Shown here: piece after piece, positions 178 to 23,608 of the stretch
How the letters are laid out: every line of letters begins with the position of its first letter
Numbering within the stretch: the stretch's first letter is position 1
Origin: a virus
Taxonomy: Duplodnaviria > Caudoviricetes
IMG/VR virus record: IMGVR_UViG_3300023275_000004
Coordinates: 61,619-125,618 of that record
Reading direction: 5' to 3' (one strand)
Length of the DNA: 64,000 nt
Program-made: the position numbers and the translations under genes
The notes under the pieces: model-generated
The model's input: the letters and a program-made list of their open reading frames with translations, nothing else
What the model was told of the DNA's origin: nothing
The model's database searches: none

Positions 178-186
178 ACTGGAAAG

Positions 187-262
187 GGTGACTGACGAGA
201 TTTGAACTCGCGGTCTCTAGGGTCACAACCTAGCGCTTTAACCAGACTAAGCTACAGCCACC
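187..262 (-). tRNA. tRNA-His (GTG)
   Basis: cloverleaf, encoded G-1, anticodon arm CTAGG-TTGTGAC-CCTAG, C73. Confidence 0.93.
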
Positions 263-355
263 ATTCGGAAATTCCTCGGTGCCAGTTCACCATAGGAGAA
301 ATTTCCTTTGTCTCTGGTCTTCTACTAGAGGATGTGAAACCTCCAACCAGCTACG

Positions 356-429
356 CTGCCCGACTAGGACTCGAACCTAGAAACACCGGAGTCAAAGGCC
401 GGGGACTTTGCCAATTCGTCTACCGGGCA
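356..429 (-). tRNA. tRNA-Gln (TTG)
   Basis: acceptor TGCCCGG/TCGGGCA, loop CT-TTG-AC, GGTTCGAGTCC T arm. Confidence 0.9.
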
Positions 430-587
430 TAGTGTCCGACCATCGAAATAATCCAGTATCAAGCTAGCCTCACTTGACTTAAATCATTCGGAGGGGGCAT
501 GTCGTCTCGCACCTATTCCCTCATTTTATATGAAATTAGCTGTGCGCTAAGCACATTTAAGAGATTGCCTTTCCCACTACTTTCAAG

Positions 588-659
588 CTCTCCGACCTGG
601 ACTCGAACCAAGATTAAGGGATTCAGAGTCCCTTGTGCTACCCATTACACTATCGGAGA
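588..659 (-). tRNA. tRNA-Gln (CTG)
   Basis: acceptor TCTCCGA/TCGGAGA, loop CT-CTG-AA. Confidence 0.92.
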
Positions 660-946
660 ATAAAGACTTTAAGGCTTTCATCTGTGCGGTGGCTGCTGTG
701 CGAAGCTTTGGACACTTCGTTACCAGAATGACGTTTAATGAAGGGCTGCTATCCTTCAGAAAACCAGCCTAATGCGAGCAGTTGACGGCTACCCATGTGC
801 TAATCGCCTTGTAGTCCTAGCTGCTATCCAGTGACTCCATCTAAATGAGAATGAGTTTGCTAGCAGGCTAAATAATAAGCGCCTTGTAAGCCCACCGAAG
901 GGTAGCTAATCCTCCTGTACTTACATCCCCTCTTATTATTATCGCG

Positions 947-1019
947 TCGGGTATGAAGGACTCGAACCTTCCGCCTCCGGACTCCAAGACCGGCCGTCTT
1001 CCCCATGACCTAATACCCG
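947..1019 (-). tRNA. tRNA-Pro (TGG), atypical anticodon arm
   Basis: C1-G72/A73 Pro acceptor; loop CT-TGG-AG (A37), U31-U39 mismatch. Confidence 0.8.
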
Positions 1020-1037
1020 GTAAACCTTATAAGTACG

Positions 1038-1111
1038 TCGGGATGACAGGATTTGAACCTGCGACATCTTGCTCCCAAAGCAAGCGCGCTACCAAACTGC
1101 GCCACATCCCG
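1038..1111 (-). tRNA. tRNA-Pro (TGG)
   Basis: canonical cloverleaf, CTTGC-TTTGGGA-GCAAG. Confidence 0.95.
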
Positions 1112-1113
1112 AT

Positions 1114-1197
1114 TGTAAGCAATCAGTAGGACTCGAACCTACAACCCCCGGCTTACCATGCCCGGCGCTCTGCCTTTGAGGCGTACAACTGCTTACA
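1114..1197 (-). ncRNA. tRNA-like RNA (Thr-GGT-like) with 12-bp extended acceptor helix
   Basis: T arm GTAGG-TTCGAGT-CCTAC; loop AT-GGT-AA on a bulged stem; TGTAAGCAGTTG/TGATTGCTTACA. Confidence 0.6.
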
Positions 1198-1203
1198 TGC
1201 TTA

Positions 1204-1233
1204 ATACTACTCTTACTCTGTACCTTCTGTCAA
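1204..1233 (-). promoter_or_regulatory. sigma70-type promoter
   Basis: TTGACA-18bp-TAGTAT directly upstream of tRNA cluster. Confidence 0.7.
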
Positions 1234-1512
1234 CTCTTCATCCGTAAGAAGCTTTGGACTCAGAATGTTTGTGTACTCATGCCAAGCCTGCGAGATAGCA
1301 AAATATGTTAGCAGGATGTCAATAACTATCCAAAATTCTCGGGTCAGAACAAAATATCTAGTTGGAGGAAAAAACACATCCCACACTAACGAAAGTGTCC
1401 AACACACAGTCCAGAAGATATTCCACTTGATAGCTCTACGCTGTTTCGGAGAAATAAACTTCCATTGAATCTTAGCCCGAGCTAGATTCCATTCGACTGC
1501 GGTCTTTACCAT
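1213..1512 (-). CDS. hypothetical membrane protein (2 TM)
   Basis: 99-aa ORF, two hydrophobic segments, overlaps stop of upstream gene. Confidence 0.7.
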   Translation of the reverse strand: MVKTAVEWNLARAKIQWKFISPKQRRAIKWNIFWTVCWTLSLVWDVFFPPTRYFVLTREFWIVIDILLTYFAISQAWHEYTNILSPKLLTDEELTEGTE

Positions 1513-2150
1513 GGCAGGCAGACTCCCTTAGTAGTGCAAGTGAGTAGACCCATGTGAGTATAGTAGTTCAAGCAAGAAAACACTAGGAAGAAAACTCCAA
1601 CTGTATTCCAACCATATCTAACTAACTTAATAAGTGTTCCATCGGTTACTGTAAAAGGAAGAGCCAGACAAGATAGTGCTGCAATTAGGTAGATAATTCC
1701 AAAGGTTGTATTTTCCCAGCCATGGAACTGTCCAGAAATTGGCTCCATCGAAGGAGCGTCACCAACTACATTAAATCTGAAAATTGCTGCGGAGCAAGAT
1801 AACAACATTAGACCAACTGCTGCGACTATCCAAATGAAAACTCTACCATTGATTTTAATCCTTCTAGTGGAATTTACTACTAGGAAGGTACCACCAGTGA
1901 TTGCTAACATCCCAAGAATCAAACTTGGTTCCGCAAAAAGAATGTTGATCGGTAGATTTACCTTAAGGGGCCAAGTTGTTGCCATAAGAAAAGATAACAC
2001 CGTTAGTGGCACTCCAGCAACAAGTAGTCCGTATCCATGAACTGTAGAAGAAAGCCTTTCAAAAGATCCTTGCGAAAGCTTTAGAATGTTTGATGTGATT
2101 AGTAGCACAAGCGCTGCGCAAAATCCCATCATGGTATTGTAAAGAATCAT
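1506..2150 (-). CDS. DUF981-family polytopic membrane protein
   Basis: YNTMMG...TWPL...NILFAEPSL motifs, about 6 TM segments. Confidence 0.7.
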   Translation of the reverse strand: MILYNTMMGFCAALVLLITSNILKLSQGSFERLSSTVHGYGLLVAGVPLTVLSFLMATTWPLKVNLPINILFAEPSLILGMLAITGGTFLVVNSTRRIKINGRVFIWIVAAVGLMLLSCSAAIFRFNVVGDAPSMEPISGQFHGWENTTFGIIYLIAALSCLALPFTVTDGTLIKLVRYGWNTVGVFFLVFSCLNYYTHMGLLTCTTKGVCLPW

Positions 2151-2181
2151 AGTTTTCTGCTCTCTTTCAATTTTACTAACG

Positions 2182-2257
2182 TGGTGAGTACAGGAATCGA
2201 ACCTGTGAACCTCTCGGGTTTCAACCGAGCGCTCTGACCAGTCTGAGCTAACTCACC
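2182..2257 (-). tRNA. tRNA-Phe (GAA)
   Basis: CTCGG-TTGAAAC-CCGAG. Confidence 0.93.
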
Positions 2258-2348
2258 ATTACTGGTAGTTGTAGCGGTCCGCCTTCCTATCTACCAGTAT
2301 CCCTTAACTCAAGTCGATAAGCGGACATGTGAACTTGAGCTTACAGCG

Positions 2349-2420
2349 TAGAGCTAGAGGGAATTGAACCCTCACTACGAGATTGAAAGCCTCGCGTCCT
2401 AGCCATTAAACGATAGCTCC
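2349..2420 (-). tRNA. tRNA-Glu (TTC)
   Basis: CGAGG-CTTTCAA-TCTCG. Confidence 0.92.
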
Positions 2421-2456
2421 AAGGCTGTGCGGAAACTTACCCGCACATTTTTATTA

Positions 2457-2579
2457 CTAGCAGAAAGCTAGAAAGATAGTCACAGCAACAAAAACAATAA
2501 ATATTACTGTAAACCAATTGAAAGGAGATGGGTACTCGCCGTCCCTTTTTTTCTTCTCTTCTTCCCACTCGTTACTCAT
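2457..2579 (-). CDS. small membrane peptide (40 aa)
   Basis: MSNEWEEEKKKRDGEYPSPFNWFTVIFIVFVAVTIFLAFC; TGATG overlap with upstream ORF; below ORF-track cutoff. Confidence 0.6.
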   Translation of the reverse strand: MSNEWEEEKKKRDGEYPSPFNWFTVIFIVFVAVTIFLAFC

Positions 2580-2707
2580 CAGAATAGCCCTAGAAATCTA
2601 GCACCGTGCTCATGCATCTGCCAGAAAAACCAGGCTGCAAAGAGCATCCAAAGTACAAAAAGAACGGTGCCCAGCTTAGTTCCACCCTTTTTTGCTTCTC
2701 GCGCCAT
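2579..2707 (-). CDS. small membrane peptide (42 aa)
   Basis: MAREAKKGGTKLGTVLFVLWMLFAAWFFWQ...; RBS AGGAGG. Confidence 0.65.
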   Translation of the reverse strand: MAREAKKGGTKLGTVLFVLWMLFAAWFFWQMHEHGARFLGLF

Positions 2708-2745
2708 ATTTCCTCCTAAGATAGATTCCTGAAAGTATTCTTACC

Positions 2746-2832
2746 TCAGCCAGGAAAACCGGGCTGCGACATCATCGCAACGACGAAGAGGACGAGCATG
2801 ATGATAAAGATTGCAAACAGTACATTCTTCAT
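2746..2832 (-). CDS. small membrane peptide (28 aa)
   Basis: MKNVLFAIFIIMLVLFVVAMMSQPGFPG; RBS AAGGAG; first ORF after promoter. Confidence 0.6.
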   Translation of the reverse strand: MKNVLFAIFIIMLVLFVVAMMSQPGFPG

Positions 2833-2873
2833 TTTGTTCTCCTTGGATCGATGTGTGTTTTGCTTATGTAATA

Positions 2874-2903
2874 ACTCTAGCATAGCCTAATTCATGATCG
2901 CAA
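2874..2903 (-). promoter_or_regulatory. sigma70-type promoter
   Basis: TTGCGA-18bp-TAGAGT with extended TG. Confidence 0.5.
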
Positions 2904-3004
2904 GTCCTGATTTTGAGTATAAAAAAGCGCAGTATTGGCACGGCACTGCGCAGCCGCTCAGGAATCTAAAAATAGGGAGGAGTACCTATTCTTAAACTTT
3001 ACCG

Positions 3005-3078
3005 TACTCCATGAGGGATTTGAACCCTCGATCTCCTGATTGAGAATCAGACGTGTTCGGCCACTACACTAATGGAGC
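3005..3078 (-). tRNA. tRNA-Glu (CTC)
   Basis: loop TT-CTC-AA. Confidence 0.92.
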
Positions 3079-3092
3079 ATAAATTTATTGCG

Positions 3093-3174
3093 TGCTGGTA
3101 ACGAGACTCGAACTCGTACGTCACTAGGACGGGAGATTTTAAGGCTCCTGTGTCTGCCATTCCACCATACCAGC
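3093..3174 (-). tRNA. tRNA-Leu (TAA)
   Basis: loop CT-TAA-AA, long variable arm, A73. Confidence 0.9.
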
Positions 3175-3276
3175 TTGTCGACGGTTTTCCAGAGCGACCA
3201 TAGAGGCGTACCTCACAGGTTGCAGCTACATTATGCTCTGAGGGAACCGTCGTGAAACCCAGGTAAGTAAATTGTA

Positions 3277-3468
3277 TTAAATATCCATAGCGTACTCATG
3301 TTCGCACTCGTCACATAACCACATCGGAGTGCTATCTCCATGGATCTCTTCCTCGAAAGGATCTGATCTCCACTCGATCATGTTACCTTCTGTGAAGTCA
3401 TTCCAGCCCTTACGAACCGGATAAATTTTATCACAGAAGCCAGCACACTTACGGTGTAGATATTTCAT
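3277..3468 (-). CDS. hypothetical Cys-rich protein
   Basis: 63 aa, CxxxC and CxxC, RBS GAGGAGG. Confidence 0.65.
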   Translation of the reverse strand: MKYLHRKCAGFCDKIYPVRKGWNDFTEGNMIEWRSDPFEEEIHGDSTPMWLCDECEHEYAMDI

Positions 3469-3602
3469 TTTTCCTCCTCAGATTAGAGACAATCTGAGTC
3501 AACAACTTGAGAAGGAAAAGTTGGTCTGAAGGTATGGACATAACCCCATACGTTTCCGCCCCCAACGGGCGGCGGTAATTGTATCTCTAGCCTACTTCAG
3601 AG

Positions 3603-3684
3603 TGCTCCTAACAGGACTCGAACCTGCACGCCTCTCGGCATGGCGTTCTAAGCGCCACGTGTATGCCAATTTCACCACAGGAGC
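3603..3684 (-). tRNA. tRNA-Leu (TAG)
   Basis: TGGCG-CTTAGAA-CGCCA, long variable arm. Confidence 0.92.
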
Positions 3685-3743
3685 TTGGTAGGAGAGGTCT
3701 TTCAACCTCTCGCTACAACTATCTTACACTATTACTGCCTAAC

Positions 3744-4778
3744 TTAGCAACTACCAGGACCACCATAGCGGATTGTGCGAGTGCTTTGAACAGGCGGAGT
3801 AGCCGTACTGTTCTGACGGAATCCCTGATACCAAGTTGGCTGAGTAGCAAAAGCATTCAGCACAACATTAGTTGATGGCTGCCCCGAATACGTAACGTTC
3901 GATAGACGCGCGCCAGCAGTAGGAGTAGCCATTACAGGTGTAGGACCAAGACCCATATCAGCACAGGTAGCTGGTGTTCCAGCGGCAACCTCACCAAAGG
4001 TCTGGAAAAAGTCTACCTGCTTGAACGTAGTTACACTAGGAGTAGCACCTGTCCAGATAGTATCTGGAAAATTACCAATCCAGTCAGCTGTGCCATCGTT
4101 TGGACCAAAACCAATCCACCAAGCTGTAGCAGTGCGCTCAATCTGGAAGACCATCTCAGTGTTAGCGTTGGCATAAGCAGTAAGATCAGCGCCAGCGTTG
4201 AACGTAGTATTGGCAGCGTTATCAACCCAACCACAACCATTGTAGCATGTTTCCTGACCATTTACCCAATGATAAACAAAAAGACGAACTTTGTTGTCAC
4301 CATTAGTTGACTGATCACGGGTTACACCAACCTCAACAGCTTGCTGCTCGTCTGCTGACTGCACAGCATCTTCGTTAAGAGTATGATAATCCCAAGTTGG
4401 ATTGATATACGGTGTACTTACTGTGTTCAGTGAGGACACTCCTGTGGGAGGAGTAGTTGGCCTCTGCTTTCCACCAGCGTAAATATAACTTACTGCCCCA
4501 GGAGTCCTCTTTGCACGTAAATGTGAAGGTGGCACAGGAGGTCTTCCCTTTGCCCCAGACCCTGTAGTTTTTGCAAATGCGGCGCTAGGATCTCCACTGA
4601 TGACCTTTCCGGCCTTAGCTGGATCTCCCTTTGGGATAGGGATAGAAATCCCGACCCTAGTAGTGTCACTAGCCGCTGCTTGAGCTGCTGTGGGTACTGC
4701 CTGTGCCGGGGATACCCCGATAGTAAGCGAAGCTAGCAAAGTAAGTCCTGCTAGTGCTCCCATAAAACGATTTTTCAT
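3744..4778 (-). CDS. secreted neprosin-like (DUF239) glutamic peptidase
   Basis: signal peptide ending PAQA; AVEVG...LFVYHWVNGQETCYNGCGW...FGEV...CADMG motifs; start moved to ATG 4778 because the longer ORF overlaps a tRNA. Confidence 0.8.
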   Translation of the reverse strand: MKNRFMGALAGLTLLASLTIGVSPAQAVPTAAQAAASDTTRVGISIPIPKGDPAKAGKVISGDPSAAFAKTTGSGAKGRPPVPPSHLRAKRTPGAVSYIYAGGKQRPTTPPTGVSSLNTVSTPYINPTWDYHTLNEDAVQSADEQQAVEVGVTRDQSTNGDNKVRLFVYHWVNGQETCYNGCGWVDNAANTTFNAGADLTAYANANTEMVFQIERTATAWWIGFGPNDGTADWIGNFPDTIWTGATPSVTTFKQVDFFQTFGEVAAGTPATCADMGLGPTPVMATPTAGARLSNVTYSGQPSTNVVLNAFATQPTWYQGFRQNSTATPPVQSTRTIRYGGPGSC

Positions 4779-4807
4779 ATCGTTCCCTTTCGACGCCGTT
4801 GTTGGCG

Positions 4808-4890
4808 TGCCGATGACAGGAGTCGAACCTGCACTTCCTTTCGGAAACAACGTTCTTAGCGTTGCGTGTCTACCATTTCACCACATCGGC
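4808..4890 (-). tRNA. tRNA-Leu (AAG)
   Basis: perfect CAACG-CTAAGAA-CGTTG arm, Leu-type variable arm, A73. Confidence 0.88.
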
Positions 4891-5160
4891 GTTTCCCGGT
4901 TAACTTTGACCTTAATCCAGCACCGGACCGACTGGGATCAACTATTTTACTAACTATGAAATAAAAGTTGAGGCTCAGTATGCATCTTTACCTCACTACG
5001 CCTGTCAGTACTCTTGCAGATCTCGTAGACTTTTAAAACAAAATTAGCGCCGAGAAAGAGGGTTGCAACTTCCCTAGCCTGCATTGCACAGCATAGAGAC
5101 CTTTTTCTCTGAAAAAAAGCCAGTGCTCAGCCCTAACCTGTTAGATACACTCTTTTCTTG

Positions 5161-5236
5161 TTGCGGAGGGAGGATTTGAACCTCCGATTTCCAGCTCATG
5201 ACGCTGGCGAGAACGACCGAACTTCTCTACCCCGCT
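5161..5236 (-). tRNA. tRNA-Met (CAT), initiator-like body with atypical anticodon arm
   Basis: A1/A72 mismatch, GCGGGGTAGAG 5' end; arm CCAGC-GTCATGA-GCTGG lacks the three consecutive G-C pairs. Confidence 0.8.
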
Positions 5237-5246
5237 AAGACCTTTA

Positions 5247-5275
5247 ATACTATCGGACTAACCTTACTCTGTCAA
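5247..5275 (-). promoter_or_regulatory. sigma70-type promoter overlapping a CCGAT motif
   Basis: TTGACA-17bp-TAGTAT; CCGAT at 5252-5256. Confidence 0.7.
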
Positions 5276-5405
5276 CTGCTTCAGACGCTCTACCTCAGCT
5301 AGAAGAACTCTAACATGATAGACAGCAGTATTTTTGTCAAGCTTGTCTGTCTGTGAGTAGTAAGCGTATTTTTGACTGATTTTTTCTAGCTCTTCATTAG
5401 TCACG

Positions 5406-5477
5406 TCCTGATGAGTGGAATCGAACCACCTCATGCCGGGATATGAATCCGGGGCTCTACCAGTGAGCTACATCAGG
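5406..5477 (-). tRNA. tRNA-Met (CAT), elongator type
   Basis: paired 1-72, CCGGA-TTCATAT-CCCGG. Confidence 0.88.
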
Positions 5478-5714
5478 TAAAAGAGAGATAAACCACCAAC
5501 CTAACATCTCTCTCAATGTCTGCTCCGCGCTAGATATCAGCTTAGCAGACGTTCCCTCATATTACTACTCTCCTAAGTTTTTCTTAGGCATCTGCGTCAA
5601 GTATAACGCGGTTTGAGCGGGACCGCAAACCCGACCTGAGCTTCACCCTAGGCAAGTGCTTGACAAATTTCCAGGTCTCTTCGCCAAGACAGTAACTTTT
5701 TCACCTTCGTTACG

Positions 5715-5792
5715 TGGACTATACGGGACTCGAACCCGTGAACCTCCTGCAAAATCAGGTGTTGTTCGCCGACCTTCTCAACTTTATTGCCC
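5715..5792 (-). ncRNA. tRNA-Ala-like RNA with shortened anticodon arm
   Basis: G3.U70 and A73, canonical T arm, 14-nt D loop, arm CCTG-ATTTTG-CAGG. Confidence 0.65.
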
Positions 5793-5793
5793 G

Positions 5794-5874
5794 TGGAGCT
5801 GTAGGGAGTCGAACCCTAGTCCTTCACCGTTCCGACGTGCGGCTTTCTAGTGAAGTCGAATACCGTCCAGCCCC
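5794..5874 (-). ncRNA. minimal tmRNA: tRNA-like domain only, no mRNA-like domain
   Basis: 5' GGGGCTG-GACGGTATTCGAC and 3' GGAC-TAGGGTTCGACTCCCTA-CAGCTCCA joined by a short CTTCAC/GTGAAG hairpin. Confidence 0.8.
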
Positions 5875-6085
5875 TCAGCTACAGCAGGAACCTTATTCCC
5901 TACGGTACTGTAGCACTACCGATCCACCCGATGCTAGCTGCCCTGCCCTTAGGCTCTGGTGGATAGGGCACTAAAACCTAGATAGTCTCGGAAGACATCT
6001 AGGAACTAGTGTGAATGAGAAAACAGGCCCTACCTGCATTTAATCCTAAGTTTTGGAGGCTTAGACTTCCTCGCTCACAAGAACT

Positions 6086-6114
6086 ACTTTACACTAACTG
6101 CCTAGCTCTGTCAA
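6086..6114 (-). promoter_or_regulatory. sigma70-type promoter for mini-tmRNA/tRNA transcript
   Basis: TTGACA-17bp-TAAAGT. Confidence 0.7.
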
Positions 6115-6995
6115 GCTACCGAAAGCTTAGTAGAAGCTAGGGCAGACTTCACGGCAGCAAGAACATCTTCCTTAGAAGCTGCCTTGTCTACTGGAAGCTT
6201 AGCTACTACCGCAGAAGCTAGCGCGCTAACAAATGCTGGGTTATTAGCGATTGCTGCTCCCAATGCTACCTCATCAACATCTACGCCACTAAGTGCAGCT
6301 ACGGCTGTCTTGAGAGTAGCAACGTCGGTTGCTAGCGCACTCAAGGCTGCTGGTAGTGCATTAAGACGATAGCTGATCAAGGTCTTAGCCTGCCACTCAG
6401 GATTAGCTGGATCTCCTGAAGGCATGTAGTCAATATCCCATACTGCCTTTGCAATGTCCTGTGCTGATGGCATATCCTCATCTCCCAAATACTCTTCTAG
6501 CGTCTGACCCTTTAGAACTGACAGAATGGCATCCATTGCTTTTCTATCATTTACGTACCTTCTACGAACTTCTAGGTGTACGTGCCATTTATGGTCATCG
6601 CTAGCTGTGCCTACTGTTCCAGTAACTACGTCGTAGCGCCCCGGACTTCCATTTCCGTCCCAGCCATTCCAAGCGTTAATGTACTTCATACGCTCATCTG
6701 TGGCTCTGTTCTGCCAAGCTGCTTTCAATCTTGCGTGACACTTTTTCATGTCCGTCAAGTTAAGCGTCATATCTACGGCCGAGGCCATATTTCTAGGCCA
6801 GTCACCAGGAGGAGCCTTGTCATCTTTTCTGGTTACTGAGTAGTTATCAGAAGGCTGATCCTGAATTGAGATATGATAGCCGCCTCTAGCGGCATGAGCT
6901 GCGTCTCCTACGATTCCAGAGATCGCGGCAGAGGGATAAAGTTTCTCCCATTCATTTGACAGATAAACTAATTGTGCTGGTGCTGCTGTTGACAT
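6111..6995 (-). CDS. probable endolysin (M15-like Zn peptidase domain plus helical C-terminus)
   Basis: SGIVGDAAH..GGYH, ASAVD and HKWHVHLE motifs typical of actinomycete phage lysins. Confidence 0.6.
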   Translation of the reverse strand: MSTAAPAQLVYLSNEWEKLYPSAAISGIVGDAAHAARGGYHISIQDQPSDNYSVTRKDDKAPPGDWPRNMASAVDMTLNLTDMKKCHARLKAAWQNRATDERMKYINAWNGWDGNGSPGRYDVVTGTVGTASDDHKWHVHLEVRRRYVNDRKAMDAILSVLKGQTLEEYLGDEDMPSAQDIAKAVWDIDYMPSGDPANPEWQAKTLISYRLNALPAALSALATDVATLKTAVAALSGVDVDEVALGAAIANNPAFVSALASAVVAKLPVDKAASKEDVLAAVKSALASTKLSVA

Positions 6996-23475: not shown

Positions 23476-23537
23476 CTAAAAAGTGAGTACGCCCAACATC
23501 TTGCATGGCCTAGGCTCGGGCACTGTACTCACTTTAG

Positions 23538-23608
23538 TACGACGACAGGACTCGAACCTGCAACACCGGCTTATATGCCAGGGCTTTACCCACTTAAGCT
23601 ACGCCGCT
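23538..23608 (-). ncRNA. tRNA-like RNA with 6-nt anticodon loop (ATATAA), possibly Ile-related
   Basis: normal D and T arms, CTGGC-ATATAA-GCCGG, 6-bp acceptor. Confidence 0.6.

Follow-up and report, generated by a model that had tools for sequence, protein, structure and literature searches.

Identification of a TLD-only tmRNA gene in the phage

The window analysed here, a 64,000-nt stretch making up the second half of an IMG/VR virus record with a length of 125.6 kb and a completeness rating of 98%, carries on its minus strand what is very probably a genuine phage gene for a tmRNA consisting of the tRNA-like domain (TLD) only, called mini-tmRNA below (Table 1). An RNA of this kind has already been published from one phage, Mycobacterium phage DS6A, and the window copy is a further member; judged by sequence and predicted fold, it belongs to the DS6A mini-tmRNA family. 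When the window was searched with Infernal, the Rfam tmRNA model RF00023 aligned 5791-5874(-) to its model positions 1-374 with a score of 54.8 bits (E 1e-20) against a gathering score of 47 bits, about 300 internal model positions being deleted and 11 inserted. This is the outcome that the earlier note on this DNA had expected, a match of both termini to RF00023 with a large internal deletion. The mt-tmRNA model was compared in the Rfam scan at E up to 1, and the clan match reported was RF00023 and not mt-tmRNA, lower-scoring overlapping clan matches being suppressed in such a scan. The family covariance model R1, which is described below, found a single copy in the window at 70.7 bits. No second mini-tmRNA and no full-length tmRNA was found above noise elsewhere in the phage record with Rfam or R1.

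The earlier note had read 5794-5874 on the minus strand as a complete tRNA-like domain from which the tag-coding part has been removed. The reading was exact to the base, and it is backed by Rfam, by the family covariance model and by covariation. Every TLD part that had been named (acceptor, D-loop analogue, helix 2a, GAC linker and T arm) was found, and the proposed closure of helix 2 by about 22 nt in an RNA of 81 nt agrees with the 20–22 nt counted between the helix-2a strands and a confirmed length of 81 nt.

The features that mark membership of the TLD are all present in the window copy, namely the D-loop analogue GG..UUCGA, the GAC/GGAC junction, helix 2a and the T arm GGGUUCGANUCCC. 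The alanine identity pair G3.U70 is formed by 5872 and 5797, helix 2a has 6–7 bp, and in the Rfam structure the G and A of the GAC linker make non-canonical pairs with A19 and G18. CCA is not encoded, the base after the discriminator being C at 5793. The mRNA-like domain is absent from the window copy, as no in-frame stop follows the first GCN. Pseudoknots PK1–PK4 and the distal helix 2 / helix 5 are absent as well, with the approximately 300 RF00023 positions that are deleted.

ARAGORN labels 5793-5882 as tRNA-Pyl(cta), which would make the RNA an amber-suppressor or pyrrolysine-type tRNA with anticodon CUA. This reading is hardly conceivable. The RNA has no D stem, and the place of U33 is taken by an A; the CUA is not kept in relatives, which read GUGAAAG, CUGUAAAG and others there; the tmRNA model scores above any tRNA model here; and TAG recoding is not indicated, as long ORFs (811, 1507 and 1693 aa) stay open when read with code 11. 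The alignment to RF00023 rules it out.

Table 1. Coordinates of the mini-tmRNA gene, its parts and surroundings in the window, and of tmRNA genes in cultured Streptomyces phages
Feature	Record	Coordinates	Strand	Description	Basis or score
Mini-tmRNA (TLD-only tmRNA) gene	Window	5794..5874	(-)	81 nt, G1 to discriminator A73-equivalent	RF00023, R1
Acceptor stem, 5' strand GGGGCUG	Window	5868..5874	(-)	Pairs with 5795-5801	Sequence
Stemless D-loop analogue GACGGUAUUCGA	Window	5856..5867	(-)	tmRNA TLD motif GG..UUCGA	Aligned to Rfam consensus aucuGGaUUCGA
Helix 2a, 5' strand CUUCACU	Window	5849..5855	(-)	Pairs with 5822-5828	Covariation
Cap	Window	5829..5848	(-)	Stands in for the ~300-nt body; A-rich 5' bulge AGAAAG, stub hairpin, 3' bulge AAC	
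Cap stub hairpin CCG-CACGU-CGG	Window	5832-5842	(-)	3 bp	
Helix 2a, 3' strand GGUGAAG	Window	5822..5828	(-)		Covariation
GAC linker	Window	5819..5821	(-)		RF00023 alignment
T arm UAGGG-UUCGACU-CCCUA	Window	5802..5818	(-)	5 bp	Alignment, covariation
Acceptor stem, 3' strand CAGCUCC, and discriminator A (5794)	Window	5794..5801	(-)		Sequence
tRNA array	Window	186..5477	(-)	14 genes, downstream of the mini-tmRNA	ARAGORN, Rfam
Sigma-70-like match	Window	6086..6114	(-)	TTGACA, 17 nt spacer, TAAAGT	10/12 consensus positions
Terminator-like hairpin	Window	6023..6037	(-)	Between promoter match and RNA	
pSt2308 mini-tmRNA	PV588686	33356-33433		Streptomyces phage, unannotated	Rfam 61 bits
LuckySocke mini-tmRNA	OR725497	596-673 of retrieved piece		Streptomyces phage, unannotated	R1 69 bits
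BRock mini-tmRNA	KX925554	592-669 of retrieved piece		Streptomyces phage, unannotated	R1 66 bits
Karimac mini-tmRNA	NC_048724	2486-2563 of retrieved piece		Streptomyces phage, unannotated	R1 54, Rfam 42 bits
Karimac full-length tmRNA	NC_048724	97752-98032		281 nt, tag-encoding	94.6 bits

A discrete and covarying family in IMG/VR

The TLD pattern with an insert of 20–50 nt was found at 20 IMG/VR loci in its strict form and at 73 in a looser form, and the 73 loci gave 54 distinct sequences of 74–95 nt, from which R1 was built, DS6A not being included. The strict pattern with an insert of 51–81 nt gave zero matches in IMG/VR, which sets the short form apart as a discrete class of its own. A search for covarying copies had been proposed in the earlier note, and it was borne out: a core pattern with the acceptor left free matched at least 120 loci of IMG/VR, and strong covariation is seen in helix 2a, the acceptor and the T arm.

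When the 54 sequences had been aligned with MAFFT, RNAalifold recovered the acceptor, helix 2a and the T arm. Paired cells amounted to 96.8%, as compared to 69.8% in shuffles (0 of 500 reached the observed value) and 45–56% with slid partners. Compensatory changes were observed in this alignment at all seven helix-2a pairs, at two acceptor pairs and at two T-arm pairs. Across the family 93.9% of helix-2a cells are paired; in the T arm, where it is the outer two pairs that covary, the figure is 100%. The G12 and U15–A19 of the D-loop analogue are invariant in the 54 relatives, which is not independent evidence because the search pattern itself fixed those bases.

When the acceptor was left free, 96 of the 105 distinct sequences among the matches listed had at least 6 of 7 acceptor pairs, as judged by a simple register test. 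Among these listed members G3.U70 is present in 95/96 and A73 in 96/96. Acceptor pair 4 in the same 96 members varies (GC 71, CG 15, UA 5, AU 4, GU 1). Retention of G3.U70 and A73 while pair 4 varies argues that alanine identity is under selection. CCA is encoded in 24 of the 96 members among the matches listed. It was found that no consistent in-frame GCN...stop exists across 126 members: in 86 the frame that starts at the first GCN meets no stop, 10 lack a GCN, and the remaining members are scattered over 1–9 codons. A micro-tag of the kind carried by 2-aa-tag tmRNAs was ruled out by this lack of a consistent frame in the 126 members.

The cap, too, has a common form. Family caps begin N-A-A-A/G-G/A-C-C, followed by a hairpin of 3–5 bp with a loop of 4–5 nt and then by a 3' bulge of 2–3 nt, and 74% of them fold at -1 kcal/mol or below, as compared to 37% of shuffles (Wilcoxon p 2.5e-6). 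At the position of the cap, the Rfam consensus continues from helix 2a through a 'GAa' internal loop into helix 2b, and the cap therefore looks like a retained internal loop plus a helix-2b stub.

Deletion during assembly, which the earlier note had named as a possible source of error, was ruled out, there being no sign of it: the same form recurs in more than 100 distinct sequences, which come from independent metagenomes as well as from cultured phages. It should be noted here that one IMG/VR contig with a mini-tmRNA has a weaker R1 match (35 bits, 4049-4116 of the retrieved piece) about 500 nt downstream, which may be a diverged second copy.

Distribution and accessory status

In bacterial and archaeal genomes totalling 596 Gb the same pattern was matched 10 times, on MAG contigs in nearly all cases, and the mini-tmRNA form appears to be essentially viral. 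Four other IMG/VR phages of 111–148 kb, each 99–100% complete, have the mini form and no full tmRNA. Some family copies lie within tRNA arrays and many are solitary.

The flanking ORF 6111-6995, for which no Pfam match was found, has homologues on 4 IMG/VR contigs (48–53% identity), one of which is 100% complete. Neither a mini nor a full tmRNA was found near these homologues or anywhere in the four records. As the nearest relatives found are without either form, the gene is accessory. It had been a concern of the earlier note that relatives might all carry a full-length tmRNA at this place; those examined have none there. The closest cultured relative of the phage DNA polymerase is that of Microbacterium phage Magritte (36.7% identity), in which no mini-tmRNA or full tmRNA was found, and the Mre11-like protein of the phage matches Streptomyces and Cutibacterium phages. 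These distant protein matches point to actinophages.

Absence from the nearest relatives would also fit a non-functional relic, be it a tmRNA gene in decay, a tmRNA fragment of attP type or a mere tRNA-like processing signal. Phages that integrate into ssrA carry 3' tmRNA fragments, and a 42-nt fragment of that sort is found in Pseudomonas phage PA_L9. A relic is nevertheless very unlikely here. Both halves of the TLD are present and paired, with compensatory changes throughout; the RNAs form a discrete size class with a conserved cap motif; and the mini form recurs in the four other large phage genomes of 99–100% completeness.

Published precedents and cultured carriers

Tag-less tmRNAs had been known to the earlier note only from some protist mitochondria. 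This was wrong, as forms from phage DS6A and from plastids have been published. Hudson, Lau and Williams list 'Mycobacterium phage DS6A (TLD only)' (PMC4131195, Table 2 and section 10), and DS6A stands in the tmRNA Website as tmID 11587 / Phage__Mycobacterium.9. In the relevant passages of PMC4131195 and PMC11915505, the TLD-only DS6A tmRNA is credited to Mao et al. 2009 (RNA Biol 6:355), and a TLD-only tmRNA is stated, again after Mao et al. 2009, to inhibit tmRNA, perhaps via SmpB titration. According to the same citing papers the inhibitor was active 'whether or not chargeable', and their passages differ slightly as to the RNA under test, which was either that of DS6A itself or 'a similar molecule'. 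Among organelles, CDS-less plastid tmRNAs of about 65 bp are described from Mallomonadaceae in a passage of PMC11915505, and CDS-less tmRNAs of jakobid mitochondria by Jacob et al. 2004 (PMC1370551). A search of the literature after 2015 on phage-encoded tmRNA/SmpB decoys found no further study of TLD-only phage forms, and a search for 'mini-tmRNA' by name found nothing. Among phages, DS6A is the only TLD-only carrier named in the literature found; the present survey shows an unannotated mini-tmRNA at no fewer than 120 loci of IMG/VR and in several cultured Streptomyces phages.

The DS6A gene was located at NC_023744 28478-28560, unannotated, between gp33 and gp34, and R1, although built without DS6A, scores it at 57.3 bits. 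The DS6A and window RNAs are both phage-encoded and have in common the architecture and size (about 80 nt), the acceptor with G3.U70/A73, the stemless D-loop analogue (of differing sequence, GGUAUUCGAC in the window copy and GGUGGUCGAC in DS6A), helix 2a, GAC and the T arm. Their caps are of the same type, GAAAACC-GCACG-CGG in DS6A and GAAAGCC-GCACGU-CGG in the window, whereas the sequences diverge at every variable pair. The DS6A gene is solitary in a 60-kb mycobacteriophage of temperate type, while the window copy stands at the head of a tRNA array in a 126-kb phage. With standard tmRNA (RF00023) the window RNA has the whole tRNA-like domain in common, including the base of helix 2 and the 'GAa' internal loop, but it is without helix 2c/d, PK1-4, resume codon, tag frame and stop codon, and in the absence of these mRNA-like parts it cannot perform the mRNA half of trans-translation. 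The CDS-less organellar tmRNAs likewise have little beyond the TLD and no tag frame, and they are presumed still to work with SmpB. However, they are vertically inherited remnants in reduced genomes; the window RNA is an accessory viral gene which, unlike them, would act in a cell having its own full tmRNA.

In addition to the Streptomyces phages of Table 1, BLAST gave near-identical matches in about 18–20 further Karimac-like (BE group) phages, these being BLAST matches only. The Streptomyces phage copies lie in the tRNA array after tRNA-Val(tac). They belong to the same family as the window copy (R1 54–70 bits) with the same cap motif and about 75–78% identity to it, and several have U4-A69 where the window has G4-C69. 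Karimac has both the mini form and a full-length tmRNA, the tag of which is ANSNVASAYALAA by our own reading of the sequence. The two genes are 11.5 kb apart and their TLDs are dissimilar; the mini form is, to judge from the sequences, not a recent derivative of the full-length tmRNA.

ARAGORN called none of 53 mini-tmRNA loci a tmRNA, and mini-tmRNAs are unannotated because this program misses or mislabels them. Rfam-based calling finds most copies, so the gap is one of annotation, and the cultured carriers make the function of the mini-tmRNA directly testable in laboratory systems that are non-pathogenic.

A shorter piece was observed in the Pseudomonas phage PA_L9 mentioned above (PP869205, 599-640 of the retrieved piece). 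In its 42 nt a GGGG start is almost directly joined to the 3' half of a tmRNA, comprising GGAC, the T arm, the acceptor 3' strand and A. It is either a still shorter form or an attP-type fragment.

Possible interference with host trans-translation

In bacteria, ribosome rescue and quality control run mainly through trans-translation. Should a small phage RNA block or redirect this pathway, the virus would have in it a compact means of acting on a core process of its host, and possibly of countering defences in which mRNA or tRNA is cut. No gene for SmpB, Pth, RF-1/ArfB or a CCA enzyme was found in the 98%-complete phage genome, and the RNA must thus work through host factors. We infer that it is expressed and matured like the neighbouring tRNAs. 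It is probably transcribed together with the tRNA array at whose head it stands; processing would be by host RNase P and by 3' trimming, as for a tRNA, the host CCA-adding enzyme would complete its 3' end, and host AlaRS would charge it on account of the alanine identity set G3.U70 and A73. The D-loop analogue, helix 2a flanked by G.A/A.G, and the T arm would be the part to which host SmpB binds. Having no resume codon, tag frame or pseudoknots, the RNA is unable to template a degradation tag. It would then act in a dominant-negative manner, as a competitor of host tmRNA for SmpB (and AlaRS/EF-Tu) of the host, with the outcome that proteins from stalled ribosomes escape SsrA tagging during infection. 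We lean towards this inhibitory mechanism as the probable one. The idea of SmpB titration, which the earlier note had raised, agrees with the published action of a comparable molecule (Mao et al. 2009, as reported in passages of PMC4131195 and PMC11915505).

Two observations speak against inhibition as the whole of the function. G3.U70 is near-universal in the family, though passive titration of SmpB needs no such pair; as it has been retained even though the published inhibitor reportedly did not need charging, the RNA could be something beyond a sponge. Karimac, moreover, has the mini form beside a full-length tag-encoding tmRNA, and this coexistence argues against a simple global shut-off. 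Retention of G3.U70 and conservation of the cap suggest more than passive titration. It is a tentative but serious possibility that charged Ala-TLD/SmpB/EF-Tu complexes enter stalled ribosomes, either as a phage-run tag-free rescue or as a lock on the ribosome against tagging. If such a lock exists, host tmRNA could not tag phage proteins that have been truncated by RNA-cleaving defences. If charged complexes are at work at all, coexistence of the Karimac type would represent two distinct and perhaps temporally separated activities.

Tag-free rescue in its full form, the second idea of the earlier note, is the main rival to inhibition. The alanylated RNA, together with host SmpB and EF-Tu, would enter the stalled ribosome, take over the nascent chain and add one Ala, and host drop-off plus Pth, or ArfB/RF-type hydrolysis, would resolve the complex, so that ribosomes are freed for the phage and the product is untagged. 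The constancy of G3.U70 and A73 among the matches listed, while neighbouring pairs vary, gives the appearance that charging is selected, and the gene lies among tRNA genes (31 ARAGORN calls including the mini-tmRNA itself), in a translation-oriented gene set. TLD-SmpB alone supports peptidyl transfer in vitro. A parallel exists in the CDS-less mitochondrial tmRNAs, which according to a passage of PMC11915505 co-occur with SmpB and are thought to aid with incomplete mRNAs. The phage, however, has neither a Pth nor an ArfB/RF-1-domain protein of its own to resolve peptidyl-mini-tmRNA. We know of no mechanism by which the ribosome could be released if the tmRNA offers no stop codon. What the single experimental study describes is inhibition and not rescue, as far as the citing papers relate it (Mao et al. 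2009), and we regard tag-free rescue as rather unlikely.

The same RNA could be a decoy for another host factor that binds tmRNA or tRNA, such as RNase R, a defence nuclease recognising tRNA shape, or AlaRS. One phage anti-CRISPR, AcrIIIA1, acts together with RNase R-binding t(m)RNA fragments about 90 nt in length, as stated in a passage of PMC11662646, and the cap, with its A-rich bulge and stub hairpin, is conserved beyond what a mere closing loop needs. We give little credence to this, as the conserved features are without exception those by which tmRNA engages AlaRS and SmpB, and the window offers no link between this locus and any nuclease or Acr gene, the ORF 6111-6995 being without a Pfam match. 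Inhibition of host tmRNA remains the preferred reading.

Genomic surroundings

The mini-tmRNA is the first RNA gene of the tRNA array in the direction of transcription. ARAGORN made 31 calls in 186-33733, all on the minus strand, 30 of which are tRNA genes and one the mini-tmRNA mislabelled tRNA-Pyl. None of the 30 window tRNA genes encodes CCA; the discriminator is followed by C in 29 of them and then by G in 21, and the resulting N73-C-G trailer is common to the mini-tmRNA and these 21 tRNA genes.

A sigma70-type promoter upstream at 6086-6114 had been part of the earlier note. The site exists, but its frequency is not above chance (1 sigma-70-like site was found in the region, as compared to 0.8 expected from shuffles) and a terminator-like hairpin intervenes, which makes the assignment weak; it is doubtful that the match is the promoter of the mini-tmRNA. 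The leader 5875-6022 (-), of 148 nt, folds at -53.9 kcal/mol (z -2.4; 1 of 200 shuffles was as good) into one long hairpin that ends 3 nt before G1. The false acceptor stem in the ARAGORN call drew on part of this hairpin.

On the other side of the gene, with its start two bases beyond the mini-tmRNA, lies a tRNA-like remnant of 79 nt at 5714-5792 (-). Its T arm, ACGGG-UUCGAGU-CCCGU, is perfect (R1 T-arm match 13.8 bits); it also has a possible acceptor GGGCAAU/AUAGUCC with G.U at pair 3 and discriminator A, and a cloverleaf-like fold (-23.5 kcal/mol, z -1.8), and it was called neither by ARAGORN nor by Rfam. Possible readings of this remnant are a tRNA-Ala in decay and a second TLD. At 5585-5699 (-), Rfam gives a weak match to the Yersinia sRNA Ysr224, with 23 bits against a cut-off of 70 and a terminator-like hairpin at its end; this match is probably due to chance. 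Further along, at 23537-23608 (-), ARAGORN gives a tRNA with a 2-nt 'anticodon' (at), which scores 34.8 bits with the Rfam tRNA model and is odd or degenerate.
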